A DNA stretch of 60,676 nt, filler included, from Asterionella formosa (taxonomy: Eukaryota), in NCBI GenBank assembly GCA_002256025.1. It is 8 parts of 8 records of this genome, joined end to end, with 100 filler letters (N's around TTAATTAATTAA, not from the genome) between each part and the next. Parts side by side here need not be neighbours in the genome. Positions count along the whole stretch, not along the records: positions 7,624 to 15,131 come from NKIB01012434.1; 7 more parts are not named here. One strand, given 5' to 3'. Both the position numbers and the translations under genes were made by a program. The notes under the pieces were generated by a model that worked only from the letters and a program-made list of their open reading frames with translations, searched no databases and was not told where the DNA came from. Positions 765 to 24,145 of this stretch are shown in pieces (the stretch's first letter is position 1; the number at the start of each line of letters is the position of its first letter).

Positions 765-2076
765 CGAATTCATTCCGGCCCATTAGGCTGATTTCAGTCT
801 CTTTGAGGCTCAATTTGAAAACCTTATGGTTACTTTCCTCTAACTTTAGAGACATCATTGGATAATAATTTTTCTCCTGATTAAAAGTGCTAAACATGTT
901 CAAGACGAAGAATTGGAATTTGAACAACTCATATCTAGTCATGAGTCAGTCAAAAAAGAAAAACTGTGCAGACACAGATCAGTCTGGACTGGAAGGACTC
1001 AATGCTGCTTCAATGGAATGATGTAAAAAACAATCAACTCATCGAATCATACCCATGGACCATACGCAACATGTCCTATTCATCATTTTCCAGTCTTCAC
1101 ATGTACTTTAAAGGTGGGAACTGTCAGAACCACAACCTCTATCCTTAAAATTTTCTTGCCTCTGGTGCTGGGTAGCTGGAAAACTATGTGCTCAGCATTT
1201 TTAGTCAATTTTGAAATTTTAAATCAAATAACTGGAAGGCATTCGACTTCAAATGAATTGGAAATGATGAAAATATTGGATTGCTCTTTGATCCCCCATT
1301 CAACTGGCTCCTGTCGTAAATTCCTGACTTATCCCACTCATTGACAAACAATTTTTTACAATTTCATTTTAAATTTTTACAATTTCATTGTTAAAAATCC
1401 TTTTCAGATGCTGGGGAATTGTCAACACCAATATCAACAAATCCAGCTGGTATGGCGATTTGTTCATCATCAGTGTCTAGAACTCCACCAGTTCACTTTA
1501 CAATTTTGAAAAGCTCGCCTAAAGGCATTACTTCACCTTCTGCTGCCTCCTCAAGTAAATAATCATTTTCATTTTAGTAAAAGTTGTCTGGATCACCATT
1601 GGAAATGATCTAGAAGTGATTTTCAAGGGCATACAGCTCAGTCATATCAACATCATCTACAGTCCAGCTTACCTCTGATTTTCTTGAGCTCGTCCCTCTG
1701 CCAAAATGTCATTCTTTCAAGTCATTGGTCTTTTGCGATGTTCACATGATGATTTCGGACCCACAGATATGGGTGAATGTACTTGGAAAGTCATGAAACG
1801 ATGGCACCTTTACCCATTGTAAAATTTTGTTTTCACACTATCATCCTGCAAAGATACTTTTGAGAGATTTTGGCAGGCAGACTTCTCATGTATCTGAATT
1901 TTTTAAACCTATATAAGCTTATTGCCATTCATACATCCAGAAACATAAAGTTCTGTAGATTTAGATTAACTTTTCAGAAATGAAAGGTCCGTTGAATTGA
2001 GCTAGGGGCAAGGGATTGAAAACCCAGACTGAATCCAGTCTATTAGACTGAAATCAGTCTTGCCGGAAAGAATCCG
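765..2076. mobile_element. Putative degenerate TIR DNA transposon, family unassigned
   Basis: Imperfect inverted termini: cgaattcattccggc..aggctgatttcagtct (765-800) versus agactgaaatcagtcttgccggaaagaatccg (2045-2076). Further tcagtct/agactga motifs lie near both ends. The interior is stop-riddled. Confidence 0.45.
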
Positions 2077-7523: not shown

Positions 7524-7623
7524 NNNNNNNNNNNNNNNNNNNNNNNNNNNNNNNNNNNNNNNNNNNNTTAATTAATTAANNNNNNNNNNNNNNNNNNNNN
7601 NNNNNNNNNNNNNNNNNNNNNNN
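7524..7623. other. Artificial contig linker (N-TTAATTAATTAA-N). The same linker occurs at 15132-15231, 22736-22835, 30335-30434, 37926-38025, 45513-45612 and 53096-53195.
   Basis: Identical 100-bp six-frame stop linkers separate contigs of monotonically decreasing length. Confidence 0.97.
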
Positions 7624-7625
7624 AT

Positions 7626-9790
7626 TTTGTCGCCCCTACGCACCATCATGTTCAAATTGTAAATGAGCATGGTGTACAAGCAGAGTACGCAAGGAATGGA
7701 TTCTGTCCTCATCATGCAGACATTCAGCTTCGCAAAAAGAAGAGATTTGGAGGTTGGAAGACTGTGCGAGACAGCTGCCCTAAATGCGATCGTCTGAATA
7801 CCCAAGGGCCCACTTCTCCAGTGACTCCAATGCCTCAGCAGTCTCCTTCTTTGCCAGCATTCCAAATTCAAACAACTTCAAGTTCGTGTAAAATTGCTGC
7901 AATTCTTTCAAAGATGCAAATGAATGAACGGAATGCTGACATTCAAATAAAATGTTGTTCAGAACTTTGTGACTTGGCTGCAAATAATGACAAGAACAAG
8001 GTAACGATTGCTGAAGCAGGAGGTATCATTACGATTCTGTCTGCGATGAAGACTCATTTCTCAAATGCTAATGTGCAACACTATGGTTGTGAAGGGCTTA
8101 TGAACTTGGCTGTTAATGACAAGAACAAGGTGACGATTGTTGAAGCAGGAGGTATCACTACGATTCTGTCTGCAATGAAGACTCGATCCTCAAATGCTAC
8201 TGTGCAAGATAATGGTTGTGTAGCACTTCAGAACTTGGCTTTGAGAAATGACAAGAACAAGGTGACAAATCTTGTAGCAGGAGGTATCACTACGATTATG
8301 TCTGCAATGAAGACTCATTCCTCAAATGCTTATGTACAACAGTATGGTTGTGGAGCACTTTTTTACTTGGCTTTTAATGACAATAACAAGGTGATGATTG
8401 CTGATGCAGGAGGTATCACTACGATTCCGTCTGCAATGATGACTCATTCCTCCAATGATGTTGTGCAACACTTGATGAAGACTCATTCCTCAAATGCTAA
8501 TGTACAACAGTATGGTTGTGGAGCACTTGGGACCTTGGCTACTCATAATGAAAGCATCAAGCTTATAATTGCCGATGCTGGTGGAGAAGATGCAATTATA
8601 TCTGCTATTCGAAATCACTCATCCAATGCTGGTGTCTATGAAAAAGGTAATGAAGCACTTCGTATCTTTCAACCAATCTCAACAACATCCAAGAGAGTGC
8701 ATCTTCCTTCCTTAACAACTCCAACACCAAGCAGTAGTAATTCAACTGATCTCATTTCTGAAGGTCAATCGAAAATGAAGGAAGCTATGGACAATGTGAA
8801 ATCAAGACCAATCGAGCTTTCTGTTGAATTCATTACATATTGTACAAACAACTTTGCTGAAGTCAGAAAACTTGGTCAAGGAGCTTTTGGTGTTGTTTAC
8901 AAAGGCCAAGATGACAATTGGGATTTTGCTGTTAAATGTATTCTGTTCAATATTGCTGTTGAGAAAAATAAGGTGGAGGAAGTTACCAAGGGTTTTAAAA
9001 GAGAATTCCAGGTGAGCTCATTTGTGGTATCAAATATTGCATTTCGTTTCAAGTCTTTATGTTTCTCATTCTACTTTCATACTGTTTCAGGCATTGAAGA
9101 GGTTCCGACACCCCAATATTATAACTTTGTATGGCTATCATTTGTCCTCTGGTTCACCTTATCAATACCTTGTGTTTGAGTATGCATCCAAGGGTTCTCT
9201 TGATACATTTTTAAAAAGTGAACAAAGCAGAGCAACTCTCTCAAGTGAGACCCGACTTCAAATCTTGTCAGACATTATTTGTGCCATCCACTACCTTCAT
9301 ACTGGTACAAAGGACAACCTTGGTCTGTTTCATCGTGATATCAAGTCAGCTAATATCTGCCTTGATCAGAACTATACTGCCAAGCTGATTGATTATGGTT
9401 TAGCCAAATTTGTTCTTGTGGATGACTCCAATGAAACCAGTGCAAATTCGTTTTCAGTACAGATCACATCAAATGGTGGAGTCTTTGGGTCACGTGGCTA
9501 CGTGTGTCCACGGTATTCTATGGGAGTTTATAAATTTGAAGCATCATGTGATGTTTACTCATTTGGCATTGTCATGATTGAGCTTGTGACAGGCTGCATC
9601 CAAAATGATAGGACAAGGTTGGGTAATTTCTCTGAACACTACTTCCCAAGTGATTTTGAAGGAAGCGCTAATGAGGCATTGGAATTGGCAATTCCAAAAC
9701 TGGTGAAGGATGTTGATCCTCTAGCATGGGAATGGGACAATGGAATTTTGTCCTCTGTGTGCTCATTAGCCATTCGTTACATTCAGTTAA
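7626..9790 (+). CDS. Zn-finger-like / armadillo-repeat / Pelle-IRAK-RLK-like Ser/Thr kinase. 5'-partial, intron 9012-9090, C-terminus apparently disrupted.
   Basis: Frame is open from the contig edge (GFCPHH...W...CPKC). It has 43-44 aa ARM repeats and kinase motifs LGQGAFGVVYKG, FAVK, HPNII, HRDIKSANI, DYGLAK, GSRGYVCP and DVYSFGIVMIEL. The GT..AG intron 9012-9090 joins the two ORFs in frame (REFQ|ALKRFRHPN). No subdomain XI R-P is seen after LAIRYIQLN. Confidence 0.85.
7984..8580 (+). repeat. Coding tandem repeat, 129/132-bp units (ARM repeats)
   Basis: ggaggtatca recurs at 8019, 8148, 8280 and 8409. One unit is internally deleted near 8470. Confidence 0.9.
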
Positions 9791-10237
9791 ATATGAACTA
9801 TTATAGTGAACAAGACTTCACTTTGAGTTTTTCATGTGATGGTTCAGAATCATACAGTGGGCGCACTCTGATAATAATAAATTATTATATCATGTGTATT
9901 ATAACACAAATCGTTGTACCCATAACCCCAAAATTTGTGTTTATGTTGACCAAATTTGGTAAACCTGGTAAGCACCTCGGGGTGCCTACCAGGATTACCA
10001 AATTTGGTCAACACAAACACAAATTTTTTACAGTTATAAATAACAGTGCATTATATAAAAAGATGTTTAGACATGAATGACTAGATAGAATTTTCCGGAA
10101 TATTTCAAGACTTGCTTGCTCATACTACTCAAAATGGCTTGCTCTTGCCTAAATAGGTATGCATAAACATATGCATATCGTTACATATCAATCAACCTCC
10201 TCAATAAATCGATCGTCATCGCTTTTAGATTTCGGCC

Positions 10238-10890
10238 ATGTATTCATCTTCTTCTGGTCAAAGGAGAGCAGCCAGGGAGGGCTTCCCTTCCTCTCCAAGG
10301 CTGCTTGAATGTCGCCGTCACCAGCAACAAGAACAACAACAGACTCAACCAGAAGAAGAGGAGGAGGACGACGACGAGAATGAAGATGACACTGGTGCTG
10401 ATGAGTTTGCCAGTGACGATGAGGACAGTAGGATGGGTGTCCCATGAGGTGTTTCTCAGATTGGTATTTCTGGGGTTACTCAGTCCCCATCAAGGAACAA
10501 CAACGATTTTTCACGTGCTCCTACTAGTTCAGTTTCAAGAACGGCAACTGCCAGGCAACCACCAACGTTTCCAAGAGCTCGCCGAAGCATGCAGAGTCTC
10601 GGGGTCAACAGTTCAGGATCAATGAGATTCTCTCATTGCTGGAAACCATTTCTACTCACCTGCCAATTGGGTCCCATGAATGGGAAGTTGTTGCATCACA
10701 GCACAATGAGAATTTCCCAGACCTTCACTTTGCCGAAAGTTTTCACAACTGCACAAAGTTAAGAAACCAACTGGGGACCCAACATGCCCTGCTGAGGTGA
10801 GATATGCCAAACAAATTTTTCGAAGAATCGAGCAACGAGCAGATGCAAGTGCTGAGATTGAATCCACTGATCTTGGAATAGAGAGAGAGC
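10238..10890 (+). pseudogene. Harbinger accessory Myb-like (DUF6818-type) gene, disrupted
   Basis: Across a stop and frameshifts: EILSLLETISTHLPIGSHEWEVVASQHNENFP...RKFSQLHKVKKPTGDPTCPAEVRYAKQIFRRIEQR. Confidence 0.7.
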
Positions 10891-11941
10891 CCATTTTGTC
10901 TTTGATTCTCGGAAATGATCCCTGAAGGCATCGCATTCCCCATTCCGACAGCTGTCGGAAGGAGGTGGCTTGGCGATTCATACCAAATCTTTGTCGAGGA
11001 TTACCATTTGCGTCAACATTGTTTTGATGTGATTTCAACATTGCATTTGATTTCATAGATGCCAATGCTGAATCCACAACAACTTTTTTGCCTGTATCCC
11101 TGTAAACTGTTTCAATCTGATCATAGATCGATTACCAAATTTCCATGGTGGAGTCATGTAGAACACCAGGAGCATTGAAATATGAGCAACGAATTTTTCC
11201 ATCAGGCGAAAAAAGAAACAAGTTTGTCACAAAGTGTTCATGGGTCCATCCATTGTAGAAGTTGTTCTGCTGTGTTTCATTTCCAGCCTGTTGCAGGGTC
11301 AGTTTCAGACCATCCATTGCTCCCCAACAATTTGTTATAAGTGGGTATTTCTGATTGATCATGGTTGCAAACAAGGTGGCTTCGTCTGCAGTAGGCAGTC
11401 TCACACCGGCATCTTCATGTGTCAGCAGTACTTTTACAATCATTCGCCTTGAAAACCTCAACCAAACACTCAAAGAACCATGAGTTAATCCGAAAATAAT
11501 CTGAAGAATCATATAGGAACCACGAGTCCTGGTCCATGCTAACCCAAGCGGTAGACAACTGATGGAACAGAGGTATCTTTGCCGACCTTTCTTTGTTGTT
11601 GAATTTCTAACAATGAAATCCGTATTTTTCCTACAGGGATTGAAGGAATAAAAACAAGGTTTGAACAGCTGGTGTAGGAGCTCGAAAGAAGCATGGTCAA
11701 ACCCACACGAGGTAATCAGAACATCATCATGCTTGCTGTTGAACAAAGTCCAGAATGGACTCGATAATGGATGCTGTAGTGCGTGGTGACGGATTCTGCC
11801 ACTTCTTCTTCTGACCTCATCAACAGTCAAACTTTCCCTGAACAATGGCGTCCTATTAACTGGTGGATAACACATTGCTAACAGTAGCAATGTGATCATA
11901 ATGTCATCATCATCATCAGGAGATGGGATGAAAGTCGACAT
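10890..11941 (-). pseudogene. Harbinger DDE transposase (DDE_Tnp_4/HARBI1-like) with a premature stop and 3' truncation
   Basis: CWGAMDG, FYNGW, NAPGVLHDS, VVVDSA and RQLSEWGMRCLQGSFPRIK. An in-frame TAA at 11132-11134 splits two same-frame ORFs. Confidence 0.9.
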
Positions 11942-12387
11942 GGTCAGTGACCATCGATGATGAATATATAGAACTCATGCATATAATGAACAAGAGGCGG
12001 CATAGCATACAAGAGGATGCATCGATATGAAAATTTAACTGTTGAAAATTAAAGTTAAAAATATATATAATGTCAGAGAAGTAATCTACAATATCTCTAT
12101 TATCAGAGCGCAAGGACGATATTATGTAGCAGATCACCAGAATAATTTGTGTTATAATACACACATGATATAATATTTTTTTATTATCAGAGCGCGCCCT
12201 GTGATTTCCAAGACAAAACTAGTTCATGTTATTACTACATATTTTAAAAGTTATTAAAAGTTCAAGATAAAATTGTTTTAGAGGATTAAATCATTGCGAA
12301 ATGCAACTTTCCGAAAACATAAAGTCGTGTAGTGTAAAAAATGGAAGTAAGTCTCGTTTCTTGTTTGACTGATCCTTTCCATGAAAT

Positions 12388-16360: not shown

Positions 16361-19263
16361 CTATGATGAGCAACTTAAGCAGACATCGTCGTCGTTAGCG
16401 GCTCGAACTTGCGCCGTGGTAGGCTCGTTTTGGCCTTGTTGTTCAACCGTGTATTGGATTGCGTTTACTGCAGCTTTCGTTCTTAGGTAGTACATTCCAG
16501 TCTATACAGCAGCAAGCAAAGTTAGTAACGGTAGTCGCACAGCAGACACTATATCGTAACAGCAACAAACACAAAGGTGCAAAACAAATTTTACCTTCAG
16601 TCCCTTCTTCCACCCGTAAAAATGCATTGCTGTCAACTTGTCATAGTTTGGATCCGCAATAAAAAGATTCAGGGACTGGCTCTGATCGACAAACTTCCCT
16701 CTGTCAGCAGCCATATCAATGATATCTTTCATCTTCATTTCCCATACAGTCTTGTATAATTCCTTCAGTCGGGCAGGGATGCAATCAATATTGGCCACCG
16801 AGCCACCATCGCGCATCAGCTGATTTCGTACAGATGGTGTCCACAACCCTCGATCGGACAAATCTTGGAGCAAATGAGGGTTTGTCATAATGAACTCTCC
16901 AGCTTTAACTCTCCGGATGTACAGATTGGAGCTGAACGGCTCAAAACACTCGTTCACACCAAGGATCTGCGAAGTCGAGGCGGTTGGCATGGGAGCCAAA
17001 AGAAGGGAGTTTCTCAACCCACTCGTCATGATTCGCTCTCGTAGGGCTTGCCAATCATAGCCGCCGTTTTCGTATTGCGGGGCATATTTTTGCAATGGTA
17101 TACTAGACCGACCACGTTGACTCGGTGTTTCCTTGTCAGTGATCCCCCAAAGATCAAATTGAAGCTTCCCTTCGCTCGCCGGGCTCCCGACGAACGTTTC
17201 GTAGGCTCCACATTTCTCTGCCAGTTCCGTGCTTGCTTCTAGCGCGGCATGGTAGATGGTTTCGAATATGGCTTCGTTCAACTCTTTGGACTCTGCTGAT
17301 GAGAAGGCAAGTCCAAGGCGAAGAAAGGTGTCGGCAAGACCCGATACACCAATTCCAATGGGACGGTGCCTGTGATTGGACGTCTTGGCCTCCTCAACAG
17401 GGTAGTTGTTGACGTCAATAATCTTGTTCAGATTCCGAGTCACAATCTTTGCAGCCCGGTGTAACGCCTCGTGATCGAAGAAAGCCTTACCTGACTCTTT
17501 GTTGATCGAGCCAACTGGTCCTCTTTCTGAAACGACAAACTTGGGAAGGCAACTACAGATATTGTGTGAGATATGTCAAAAACAGTTCAGGAAGCGAAAT
17601 TGAATGCAACATACATACTGGCAAGGTTGCAAACTGCAACTTCCTCTTTGTCCGTGAATTGAATGATTTCGGTGCATAGATTGCTACATTGAATTGTTCC
17701 CAGATTCTTTTGGTTGCTCTTGGCATTCGCTTGGTCCTTGTATAGCATGTAAGGAGTTCCCGTTTCAATTTGAGCATCCAAGATAGCGCTCCATAAATCT
17801 CTTGCTTTGACTTGACGCACAAAAGTGCCTTCCGCCTCATACTTTTCGTAAAGTTTTTCAAATTCCTTACCATGGCATAAGGAGAGACCCTTACTCTGGT
17901 GGGGGCACATCAAACTCCATACACCATCTTCTTCTACACGCTGCATAAACAGGTCTGGAACCCACAGTCCGTAGAAGAGATCCCTAGCTCGCTGTTCTTC
18001 CTTTCCATGGTTCTTTTTCAAGTTGAGCAAATCAAAGATATCAGCATGCCAAGGCTCTATGTATACAGCGAAAGCTCCGGGTCTTTTCCCTCCTCCTTGA
18101 TCCACATATCGAGATGTGACGTCAAAGACTCGCAGCATGGGTACTAAGCCATTCGAAACACCTCTTGTCCCCTTGATGTACGTACCACGAGCACGAATGT
18201 TGTGAACGGAAAGGCCGATACCACCAGCGGATTTCGAGATGACAGCACATCGTTTCAGAGTATCGTATATACCACTGATGGAGTCTTCTGACATTTGAAC
18301 CAAGAAACAACTACTCAGTTGAGGATGAGTGGTACCCGAATGGAAAAGAGTTGGGCTCGCATGTGTGAAGTACCCCTCGCTCATCATGTCATAAGTTTCG
18401 AAAGCATCGTTTAGTGCTTCTTCTTCATTTTTAATTTTATCCGAACAATGTATTCCCAGAGCCACCCTCATGAACAGATACTGCGGTCTTTCGATAATCT
18501 CGCCCTTTTCTGTTTTGAGCAAGTATGCACGTTCCAAAGTTTTGAACCCAAAGTAGGTCAAGGACAGATCTCTGTTAGATTTCACGCGAGCATCAATTTC
18601 AGTTGCTCTCCTTTTGACTAGATTCGCAAGGTTGGGGTCAATAAATCCATTTCCGTCTTGATATAATAGTTCGACTGCTTCTGAAAAGTTGTTTGGGGTA
18701 ACCTTGTGAACATGCGCAATACAGATTCTAGCAGCAAGTTTGGCATAGTCCGGATGTTGTGTTGACATAGATGCGGCGGTCTCCGCAGCAAGGGTGTCAA
18801 TCTCACTGCTGGTGACGTTTGGATACACTCCCCTCAAGATTGAATCTGACAATGCTTCCAAAGCAACATATCGCTCATCCAACCCTTCCGACAACGACGA
18901 TAGTCTAGAAAAGATCTGGTCGTGCAGCGGTCAGTGAATGAATCAAATGTTTTATGAGATCGCTATAGATTTTTTTCTTACCTTTTTCTTGTCGATTAAC
19001 TCCCGTCTCCCGTCGCGCTTTGTAACATAAAGATCCTCGTCCTCTGTGCTTGTCCTGTCGGTGGCAGCTGTGAAGAGCAGGGAGCCCTTTGCTTCCTTTC
19101 CTCGGGATACTTTTGAAATCGCCCCTCCAGGACCAATTTTGGTTCCTTCACCAGTCTTGTGCGTCCAAGGAGCTCCTGACGAGGAAGCCTTGGTGGCTAG
19201 AGGGGCATCTAGGCACCAAAGTGCTGTCAAAGGCAGCACCAACAATCTGGATTCGAATTTCAT
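16361..19263 (-). CDS. RNR1: Class I ribonucleoside-diphosphate reductase alpha subunit (introns 18916-18981, 17553-17614, 16502-16594)
   Basis: ATP cone (VTKRDGR), [66 protein letters not shown] and C-terminal CLSCSS. All three GT-AG introns preserve the frame. Confidence 0.95.
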
Positions 19264-22735: not shown

Positions 22736-22984
22736 NNNNNNNNNNNNNNNNNNNNNNNNNNNNNNNNNNNNNNNNNNNNTTAATTAATTAANNNNNNNNN
22801 NNNNNNNNNNNNNNNNNNNNNNNNNNNNNNNNNNNATTCAGATAATATATAGACATGTTCAACTACGTATTTTGATGTATTCAACTAATTCATGTGATGC
22901 ATTCAAAATCAACTAGGCTTATTTACGTGATGGTCACTTCACGTAATACGCGGCTTAGATGTATAACAGAAATTGTTGTACTTG

Positions 22985-24145
22985 TAACCCTGAAATTTGT
23001 GATTGTTTCAACCAACTTTGGTCCACAAACAAAGAAATTTCATTATAGTTATAAATAACAGGGCAATATACAAAAACATTTTTGTCCATGAATGAGTGCA
23101 AAAAATTTACCAAAAACAACAACTTCCACTTTCAGCACTGACCCCATTCAGGCAATGATAAACTCGATGATAGCTTCAAATATGATATCACTAAAACAAC
23201 ACATTCAGAGTATGAATCAATTGCAACCTCTCATCAACAGCAGGTACCAACAATGCATGGCAACCAACGTCTGGTGCATCATTGAATTACTAAGTGTCCT
23301 AGTTCATACCCCAGACAACTGATCGAACAGGAATCTGGGCCGACCTTGCTGACAATAAAATCCGTATTTTTCTTACAGGGAATAATATAGGAATGAAAAC
23401 AATGCCAAAATACCTGATGTAAGAGCTTGAACAAGGAAGCATGATTACAACAACACAATGTGATGAGAGAGGCATCATCATGCTTGCTGTTGAATAATGG
23501 ACTTGACAGGAGTAGGTGCTGTAGTGCCTGGTGCCTCCTGGTGTCTGCTGGTGCCTGGTGCCAGATTTCGCCACTTCCTTTTCTGACCTTATCAACAGCG
23601 AAATTTCGCTAAACAATGACATCTTGTTTACTGATGGATCACATGCTGCTAAAAGTATCAATGGGATGATCATCTCATCATCATCATAAGTAGTATCATT
23701 ATCATGATCATCAGGAGATGATGACATTATGCAACTCAATGATTATATATATACATCCTCAGCGGGTTCAATTCCCTCATTCTCCACCTACTTTGTTTAT
23801 GTAGTCCCTTGGGTTTCGGGTGTGGAGACAAACAACAAGCAGGTCCTCTGGGGGCCAAGTGCTACGACTTCATAAACTTCACGATTGTTGAGTTTGCTTG
23901 TTGACATAATTTTATAAATACATCCTCATGAAAAAGATCAGGCATAACAAATTAGAGGATGCATTGCTATGAAAATTTTACAGCTAAAAATCATTGTTAA
24001 ATTTATATTTCATGTCAGATAAGTTATCAAAATTAATTTGAATATCACAGACCAACGACAATATAATACATCGAATCAACAAAATATTTTTATGTTATAA
24101 TGCATGTTGCATTAATATGAATTAATTATCATCAGAGCATGCCCA
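22985..24145 (-). mobile_element. Diverged non-autonomous derivative of the same Harbinger family
   Basis: TIR atcagagcatgccca followed by TTA (ends 24145). Carries a decayed transposase N-terminus (MSSSPDD...IIPLILLAACDPSVNK). 23010-23090 resembles 10000-10075. Confidence 0.7.
23762..23912 (+). mobile_element. 5'-truncated tRNA-derived SINE-like insertion
   Basis: Begins gcgggttcaattccctcattctccacc (B-box/T-arm plus acceptor-like 3' strand). Flanked by the direct repeat atacatcctca (23751-23761 and 23918-23928). Absent from the homologous position of the Harbinger copy near 11970. Confidence 0.6.

Follow-up and report, generated by a model that had tools for sequence, protein, structure and literature searches.

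Can a diatom gene that joins armadillo (ARM) repeats to a kinase be read as a recognition receptor whose repeat surface is being diversified? The question is raised by a locus in a 60,676-nucleotide stretch of DNA from Asterionella formosa (GenBank assembly GCA_002256025.1), termed here the window, in which parts of eight records are joined end to end; the gene lies on the plus strand from position 7626 to position 9792, in the part taken from record NKIB01012434.1. A first-pass annotation, prepared by a model from the sequence alone, had described there a Cys/His motif, ARM repeats that differ at a few positions, and a Pelle/IRAK-like kinase, and had proposed an intracellular immune or nonself receptor. 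On the basis of evidence that is computational throughout, we consider it somewhat probable that the product of the locus is a soluble, modular sensor kinase belonging to a large, young, and recombining family of freshwater pennate diatoms. Diversifying pressure on the repeat surface, in a family evolving by birth and death, is the best-supported account of what we observed, and we treat the family as a candidate diversifying sensor-kinase family, whose immune or nonself role is a hypothesis drawn from analogy. The main rival is decay, which would explain much of the variation, especially in this copy.

Gene structure, transcription, and domain architecture

The gene is transcribed and spliced. 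Its first exon (7626..9011, plus strand; 462 codons, 5' partial) is defined by an open frame, by Pfam matches, and at its 3' edge by spliced RNA contigs, and it encodes in order the Cys/His motif, the ARM domain, a linker, and the kinase N-lobe. A 79-bp GT..AG intron (9012..9090, plus strand) splits the kinase; exactly these 79 bases are skipped by one RNA contig in run X15 and two in run X16, the two runs coming from different studies, and by none of the DNA contigs. The exon ends are joined at the equivalent junction in a protein whose kinase is 80% identical to that of the window gene (P0279). RNA contigs nearly identical to the gene (0 to 2 differences over 124 to 174 nucleotides) occur in a polyA run whose sample also supplied the best DNA run, and the spliced junction is present in a lake metatranscriptome as well. 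RNA cover fades past about position 9884 in X15 and X16 and the DNA runs carry on; as these are contigs, this is a weak hint of a transcript end. A tblastn search recovered no copy of the gene in the window beyond this one.

The 5' end of the gene is lost to an assembly linker, read directly at 7524..7623 and without strand, which consists of two N runs flanking a six-frame-stop sequence, TTAATTAATTAA. The DNA to the left of 7524 is another contig, and because the window is concatenated at this point, that sequence need not be the true neighbor of the gene. A relative 98% identical to the window gene and from a different assembly (P0003) has just 6 additional upstream residues, beginning at Met, and two further relatives (P0006 and P0007) begin about 20 residues upstream of the Cys/His module. 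On account of these start points, the gap probably conceals little coding sequence and no signal peptide. In 19-residue Kyte-Doolittle windows no transmembrane-like segment was found in the part of the protein homologous to relatives, in keeping with the absence of such a segment in the first-pass annotation; windows above 1.6 are confined to a nonhomologous read-through tail described below.

The order of the domains proposed earlier, from Cys/His motif through ARM repeats to kinase, is borne out by the open frames and Pfam matches. The N-terminal Cys/His module (7662..7787, plus strand), recognized by motif conservation in relatives, follows the pattern NEHGVQ ... C-x2-H ... W-x2-V ... C-x2-C. 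Its core, F-C-P-H-H ... C-P-K-C at nucleotides 7704-7787, is present as first described, and C27, H30, C51, and C54 of the exon-1 translation are putative zinc ligands. These positions are retained in six of seven sequences, namely, the window gene, P0003, P0004, P0006, P0007, and L001, a full-length metagenome relative 56% identical overall to the window gene; P0018 is degenerate. No Pfam family was recovered for the module at E<=0.1, and its AlphaFold2 model, with a predicted local distance difference test score (pLDDT) of 53, is too weak for a fold assignment. ESM Atlas matches for it scored only 0.77-0.79 and are leads at best. A short spacer rich in Ser, Thr, Pro, and Gln separates the module from the ARM domain.

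The ARM solenoid (7857..8675, plus strand), identified by Tandem Repeats Finder, Pfam, AlphaFold2, and Foldseek, comprises six units, all on the plus strand: an N-cap unit, U0 (7857-7985); four internal units, U1 (7986-8114; 43 residues), U2 (8115-8246; 44 residues), U3 (8247-8375; 43 residues), and U4 (8376-8546; 57 residues); and a C-cap unit, U5 (8547-8675). Tandem Repeats Finder reports a period of 129 with 3.8 copies, 83-85% matches, and scores of 664-742. Within Pfam, the repeats score best against ARM_LRRK2 (1.7e-12; 46.9 bits against a cut-off of 26.2), and the Arm family is also recovered (2e-9; 37.6 bits against a cut-off of 20.6). An AlphaFold2 model built on an alignment of 25 sequences (pLDDT, 90.7; predicted template modeling score, 0.88) has three helices per unit, at unit positions 2-10, 13-23, and 28-41. 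Its best Foldseek matches are designed ARM proteins, several of them peptide complexes, and importin-alpha, with template modeling (TM) scores of 0.76-0.78 and a root mean square deviation of about 3 Å. As modeled, the domain is a solenoid of the importin-alpha or designed-ARM type. Helix 3 of ARM repeats forms the peptide-binding groove, and in the Pfam Arm register we take unit columns 36 and 40 to be equivalent to the Trp and Asn with which helix 3 of importin-alpha holds a peptide. The Asn of column 40 is retained only in U1 and U2 of the four internal units and is the commonest residue there in the family (30 of 56 units); column 36 is variable, reading E, V, G, and G across the internal units.

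Whereas the domains and the variable residues named in the first-pass annotation stand, its statement that the repeats are nearly identical in DNA (129/132 bp) does not: the internal units match at 109-111 of 129 bases (83-86%), 129 and 132 being unit lengths, and their protein identity is 70-77%. The 5' cut, the intron, the duplication in U4, and the lost end of the kinase had also been overlooked. Alignment of the units places that duplication, which is partial, in frame, and 13 codons long, at 8436..8474 (plus strand), from the end of helix 2 to the start of helix 3. It is poorly modeled (pLDDT of about 50 at model residues 187-206) and is present in P0003 as well.

A linker cassette (8742..8855, plus strand), Ser/Thr rich and then reading ...SRPIEL..EFI..CTNNF, precedes the kinase and is conserved in relatives. 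The strict motif is found in 9 of 380 collected proteins, where it follows ARM repeats, another kinase, or a domain of unknown kind, and its ...TNNF end aligns to the segment of IRAK1 that precedes the glycine loop. The kinase N-lobe (8856..9011, plus strand) contains the glycine loop GQGAFG, the Lys of FAVK, and the Glu of KREFQ. Exon 2 (9091..9792, plus strand; ending at ...LAIRYIQ) encodes the C-lobe, which matches Pkinase (2e-26) and solved kinase structures and has HRDIKSAN at 9331-9354, DYG in place of DFG at 9391-9399, and CPRY in place of APE. Among 41 close relatives, the DFG position reads DCG in 31 and DYG in 6 (4 not covered) and is canonical in none; neither is APE canonical in any of the 41, its position reading CP-x-(Y/H/F). 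The catalytic loop of the same relatives is HRD in 28, non-RD (HCD, HHD, or HGD) in 9, and HRN in 1, with 3 not covered.

The best solved-structure matches of exon 2 alone are plant receptor-like cytoplasmic kinases (RLCKs), receptor-like kinases (RLKs), and IRAK1; for the N-lobe taken with the ...TNNF segment, 25 of 26 solved-structure rows are IRAK1 or IRAK4. With the complete kinase of P0279 at E<=1e-15, plant RLKs or RLCKs and IRAK1/3/4 make up 57 of 59 rows, the other 2 being CTR1. Among the named nondiatom matches in the protein searches, plant kinases predominate, and several of these are labeled RLK-Pelle. By this ranking of similarities, as opposed to a tree, the kinase appears to be IRAK/plant-RLK-like and does not fall outside that group; the earlier Pelle/IRAK assignment holds as a statement of similarity. 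No death domain, signal peptide, or transmembrane ectodomain was detected by Pfam searches of both exons and by hydrophobicity of the homologous part; lacking a death domain and an ectodomain, the protein is therefore at most an RLCK-like soluble member of the group. Likewise, neither exon has a Pfam match to a Roc or COR domain, and no NACHT or NB-ARC domain was found in the window gene or in 33 relatives scanned against Pfam.

A variable repeat surface in a modular gene family

The residues that the first-pass annotation listed as variable, those after VQ, GC, L, and LA, are letter-for-letter correct, and the columns that they occupy (32, 33, 36, 37, 39, 40, and 43) all lie on or just past helix 3. 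Among the four internal units, 17 of the 43 columns vary; these seven are among them, the list also including the residue added in each of the two longer units, and the remaining 10 are spread over helix 1, helix 2, and the loop. The variation is thus not confined to helix 3. In a family alignment of 56 distinct ARM units from 17 close relatives, the columns of highest entropy are 39, 23, 29, 36, 3, 10, 7, 22, 15, 25, 32, and 33. Helix assignment by the DSSP string of the model and the repeat register suggests that they correspond to the exposed faces of all three helices.

A metagenome scan yielded only 2 related loci among 93 pattern matches, and the codon analyses therefore rest on the DNA of two genes, the window gene and L001, with 10 units and 16.5 synonymous differences. 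Units compared across the two genes resemble one another (75-88%) as closely as do units of one gene, and within-gene homogenization of ARM units is absent in both. Each part of the gene shows a synonymous divergence of about 0.2 between the two. Test columns were ranked by their entropy in 45 units of other proteins, which avoids choosing sites from the tested data, and ratios of nonsynonymous to synonymous differences per site (pN/pS) were obtained as uncorrected pairwise Nei-Gojobori counts over five independent unit pairs from the two genes. The top 12 columns gave a pN/pS of 2.65 (Fisher P = 3.7e-5). The excess is greatest for the five of these that lie on helix 3 (3.28; P = 1.5e-5), followed by the three on helix 1 (2.66; P = 0.007) and the four on helix 2 or the loop (1.75; not significant), and the other 30 columns gave 0.79. 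In L001 alone, the helix-3 columns named in the first-pass annotation gave values between 2.0 and 3.1 whichever of the 15 possible pairings was used (P <= 0.029). At helix 3, then, where a ratio at or below 1 would have spoken against diversification, the ratio exceeds 1, and this nonsynonymous excess, strongest on helix 3, goes beyond what would be expected of relaxed constraint.

The gene is one of a multicopy family whose nearest named members are from diatoms, as the first-pass annotation had anticipated, and is not a single-copy invariant gene. A C-lobe search returned 97 matches, 39 of them at least 60% identical, these 39 all coming from ENA/JGI assemblies, and 279 representative clusters were recovered at E<=1e-30, some of which are plant multikinase proteins. 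In run X1, the best DNA run, 52,704 contigs are at least 90% alike on a 3.4-kb stretch, a figure that is no copy number and includes contigs belonging to a transposon; the contigs are densest over the ARM units and the transposon. The nearest named relatives are Fragilaria crotonensis entries annotated as serine/threonine kinases (40-51% identity), many with N-terminal ankyrin (ANK) repeats, followed by Epithemia Kelch-kinases and an Amphora ANK-kinase.

Comparison of domain architectures revealed that the linker-kinase cassette is combined with different N-terminal partners. It lies behind ARM repeats in the window gene, L001, P0009, P0010, P0015, and P0016; behind RNI-type leucine-rich repeats (LRRs) in the metagenome locus L002; behind a 400-residue region devoid of Pfam matches in P0279 (759 aa); and behind a second kinase in P0025, P0036, and P0203. 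In these tandem forms, the order is first kinase, linker cassette, and N-lobe of the second kinase, the first kinase being HCD (non-RD) with DCG. P0341, at 41% identity, has RNI-type LRRs and a divergent linker, and more distant diatom kinase relatives (40-51% identity) bear ANK or Kelch repeats. Conversely, ARM units like those of the window gene are also found alongside other partners: a TAZ finger, a BTB domain, or LRRs. The cassette of P0279 almost equals that of L001, as though the sensor domain had recently been exchanged. In P0210, P0218, and P0228 (the last from Fragilaria crotonensis), a Cys/His-rich segment follows directly on the kinase, with 200-300 further residues for which no Pfam family was found. 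In L002, positions 1574-2065 (minus strand) hold an open reading frame (ORF) that by eye resembles methionine aminopeptidase and may represent a neighboring gene or a chimeric contig.

Segmental mosaics are also seen. Compared with window positions 9091-9792, P0195 has one change in about 90 residues in the activation segment and differs in its flanks; P0198 has the reverse pattern, matching the window gene over the N-terminal third, and a single C-terminal third is common to P0195 and P0198. Such a pattern is indicative of recombination or gene conversion between paralogs.

Under the sensor-kinase reading, the helix-3 groove would bind a protein or peptide ligand, the specificity of the groove would be the property that is being diversified, and ligand binding would be reported through the kinase. 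Judging by the analogous kinase-fusion receptors of plants and LRR receptors of brown algae, such ligands would probably be of biotic origin, for instance parasite, virus, or nonself molecules. A broader proposal, which we put forward tentatively and regard as doubtful in its full extent, is that pennate diatoms possess a combinatorial and recombining repertoire of soluble receptor kinases, in which interchangeable ARM, LRR, ANK, and Kelch sensors and tandem pseudokinase-like units are built on one IRAK/RLK-like cassette; the ARM groove would then be diversified for the recognition of chytrid, oomycete, or virus molecules, and the repertoire would be an innate immune receptor system, in a lineage for which none is known, convergent with the tandem-kinase and kinase-fusion resistance proteins of plants.

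Diversification weighed against decay and other accounts

Several observations weigh against the sensor-kinase reading. The ratio of nonsynonymous to synonymous divergence (dN/dS) between the window gene and L001 is high throughout, at 0.61 in the Cys/His module, 0.86 in the linker and N-lobe, and 0.42 in the C-lobe, so that relaxed constraint may account for much of the variation. The helix-1 columns, too, exceed 1 in pN/pS, and over whole units the value is 1.45 and not significant (P = 0.065). The counts come from two genes with few synonymous differences, and recombination can distort such pairwise counts. Among the 56 family units, the mean entropy of helix 3 is about that of helix 1, with the end of helix 2 as high; variation at the family level is therefore surface-wide and not groove specific. 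The noncanonical DFG and APE positions, together with the non-RD and HRN catalytic loops, make kinase activity uncertain, and the IRAK/RLK likeness derives from a ranking. Finally, the window copy has a U4 malformed by its partial duplication and is without the last helix of the kinase.

Homology to relatives ends at 9792, about 20 residues short of the normal end of the kinase domain, and a nonhomologous read-through tail (9793..10080, plus strand; 95 codons, with the stop at 10078-10080) replaces the last kinase helix. Of 28 relatives extending as far as the IQ motif, 24 have the normal tail, ...RP(T/K)..ELVEKL; short-query tblastn searches for a remnant of RP[TK]..ELVEKL downstream and across the whole window gave nothing credible near the gene. 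A 99% identical relative from a different assembly (P0194) has the identical tail junction; the truncation is therefore real and shared and not an assembly error. With the last helix gone and one repeat malformed, the window copy may represent a family member that is weakened, resembles a decoy, or is decaying.

The tail runs into a Harbinger/PIF-like transposon (9859..12199; no strand assigned), which is bounded by terminal inverted repeats of 50 nt (9859-9908 and 12150-12199; 84% complementary) and contains a transposase ORF on the minus strand (11132-11941; DDE_Tnp_4, 5.7e-5). The element is covered by very many DNA contigs (X1 and X2) and almost no RNA contigs. Within it, positions 9930-10027 form a hairpin with a 47-nt inverted repeat, 94% complementary, and a 4-nt loop, part of which recurs at window positions 22945-23092. 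P0194 diverges exactly within this hairpin, which suggests a small polymorphic insertion. Elsewhere in the window (16502-18894, minus strand), a ribonucleotide reductase large subunit is encoded by two ORFs, presumably split by an intron.

The replacement of the kinase tail by unrelated sequence beside a transposon is one of the observations expected if the locus is a transcribed pseudogene, a decaying copy of a recently amplified family whose variation is mostly relaxed constraint and gene conversion. We regard this account as less than probable, yet as a distinct possibility. The 13-codon duplication in U4 fits it, as do a dN/dS of 0.42-0.86 in all nonrepeat parts, a pN/pS of 0.79 in the 30 less variable repeat columns, and the catalytic-loop variants of relatives, HRN included. 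Against it, about 700 codons are still open, splicing is correct, and RNA contigs occur in the polyA run; moreover, an allele with the same tail and duplication is present at 98-99% identity in other assemblies, and the pN/pS of 2.6-3.3 at independently chosen columns exceeds the neutral expectation.

An unlikely account is that the gene encodes an ordinary endogenous signaling or scaffold kinase unconnected with the recognition of foreign molecules, in the style of the ARM/HEAT-bearing kinases Fused, ULK4, and MAP3K-epsilon, in a family that is big only because diatom kinases of the tyrosine kinase-like (TKL) type expand readily. The wide distribution of similar ARM repeats in unrelated eukaryotes (Salpingoeca, the Cavenderia protein "Aardvark," and Rhodomonas) speaks for it, and, according to a kinome survey, oomycete TKL kinases likewise bear ANK or ARM accessory domains (PMC3019232). 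The window kinase is, however, IRAK/RLK-like and unlike the Fused, ULK, or STE kinases, and its ARM domain is N terminal to the kinase. Furthermore, the family is young (synonymous divergence of about 0.2), mosaic, and fast evolving, with a nonsynonymous excess on the repeat surface, features that would be unusual for housekeeping signaling. That a mobile element carries the gene as cargo or has amplified it, its high copy number stemming from transposition, is suggested by the Harbinger-like element abutting its 3' end and by the very many DNA contigs over the stretch, but is highly improbable, given that the inverted repeats leave the gene outside the element, that the flanks of L001 and L002 differ, and that the depth of kinase contigs is about 10x below that of the transposon in the same run.

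Relationship to known receptor and kinase systems

Chytrids, oomycetes, and viruses inflict heavy mortality on diatoms, and we know of no diatom pathogen receptor. If the sensor-kinase reading is correct, the family described here would provide a concrete set of candidate recognition receptors in diatoms: it is expanded, transcribed, and modular, it carries an IRAK/RLK-like kinase, and change on its repeat surface outpaces that at silent sites. ARM would then join the few repeat types (LRR, TPR, ANK, and WD) known as fast-evolving recognition surfaces. If the variation instead reflects relaxed constraint, the family still shows diatom kinases in which domain shuffling and mosaic recombination are unusually active.

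Both lobes of the window kinase are most similar to the plant RLKs and RLCKs and to animal IRAK/Pelle, with which HRDIKSAN is held in common. In contrast to the members of these groups, the window gene is devoid of a death domain, a transmembrane segment, and an extracellular part, the sensor being instead an N-terminal cytosolic ARM domain, and its family has D(C/Y)G and CP-x-(Y/H/F) at the DFG and APE positions. The tandem-kinase and kinase-fusion resistance proteins of plants are soluble kinases of the RLK/Pelle type fused to a kinase or to a nonkinase domain. Relatives P0025, P0036, and P0203, whose first kinase is of the HCD type, are comparable to the plant tandem-kinase proteins, from which they differ in lineage and in partner domains. 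With importin-alpha and the designed ARM proteins, the window gene shares the predicted fold (TM scores as given above) and not, in the register adopted above, the full set of putative peptide-contacting residues, the Asn being found in two of four units and the Trp position being occupied by E, V, G, and G. LRRK2 and other ROCO proteins, like the window gene, have ARM repeats N terminal to a TKL-type kinase; by Pfam, the ANK-LRR-Roc-COR region and the WD40 domain of those proteins are lacking in the window gene.

Closer to diatoms, the above-mentioned survey reports for Phytophthora infestans five IRAK-class kinases, as well as TKL kinases in which ANK or ARM serves as an accessory domain (PMC3019232). 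In those kinases, which belong to an oomycete-specific subfamily, the ARM repeats are C terminal, as opposed to N terminal in the window gene. The survey, dating from 2010, reports that it detected no IRAK-like kinase in the diatom Thalassiosira pseudonana (PMC3019232). We found no description of ARM-repeat IRAK/RLK-like kinases from diatoms in the open-access literature, which does not establish their absence from print.

In the brown alga Ectocarpus, the LRR-ROCO, LRR-kinase, and NB-ARC-TPR proteins are candidate pathogen receptors for which an immune role has been proposed (PMC3341825). Like the window family, they come from stramenopile algae, join a ligand-binding domain of the repeat type to a signaling domain, turn over rapidly by birth and death, and have repeats with marks of diversifying selection. 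Each Ectocarpus repeat is one exon and is shuffled as such, whereas the ARM units of the window gene lie in one continuous exon; the repeats are LRR or TPR, in contrast to the ARM repeats of the window gene, in which Pfam detects neither Roc-COR nor NB-ARC.

A comparable situation is seen in the fungal NOD-like receptors (NLRs), whose ANK, TPR, and WD repeats count as internally conserved by a criterion of at least 85% identity, as set out by Dyrka et al. 2014 (PMC4986451). The window gene is without a NOD domain, and its internal units, at 70-77% protein identity, fall short of that criterion, given there also as an internal repeat identity above 85% over at least 100 residues. The features in which the two nevertheless agree are repeats that resemble one another within a protein, variable and positively selected surface sites, a variable number of repeats, and combinatorial domain architectures.

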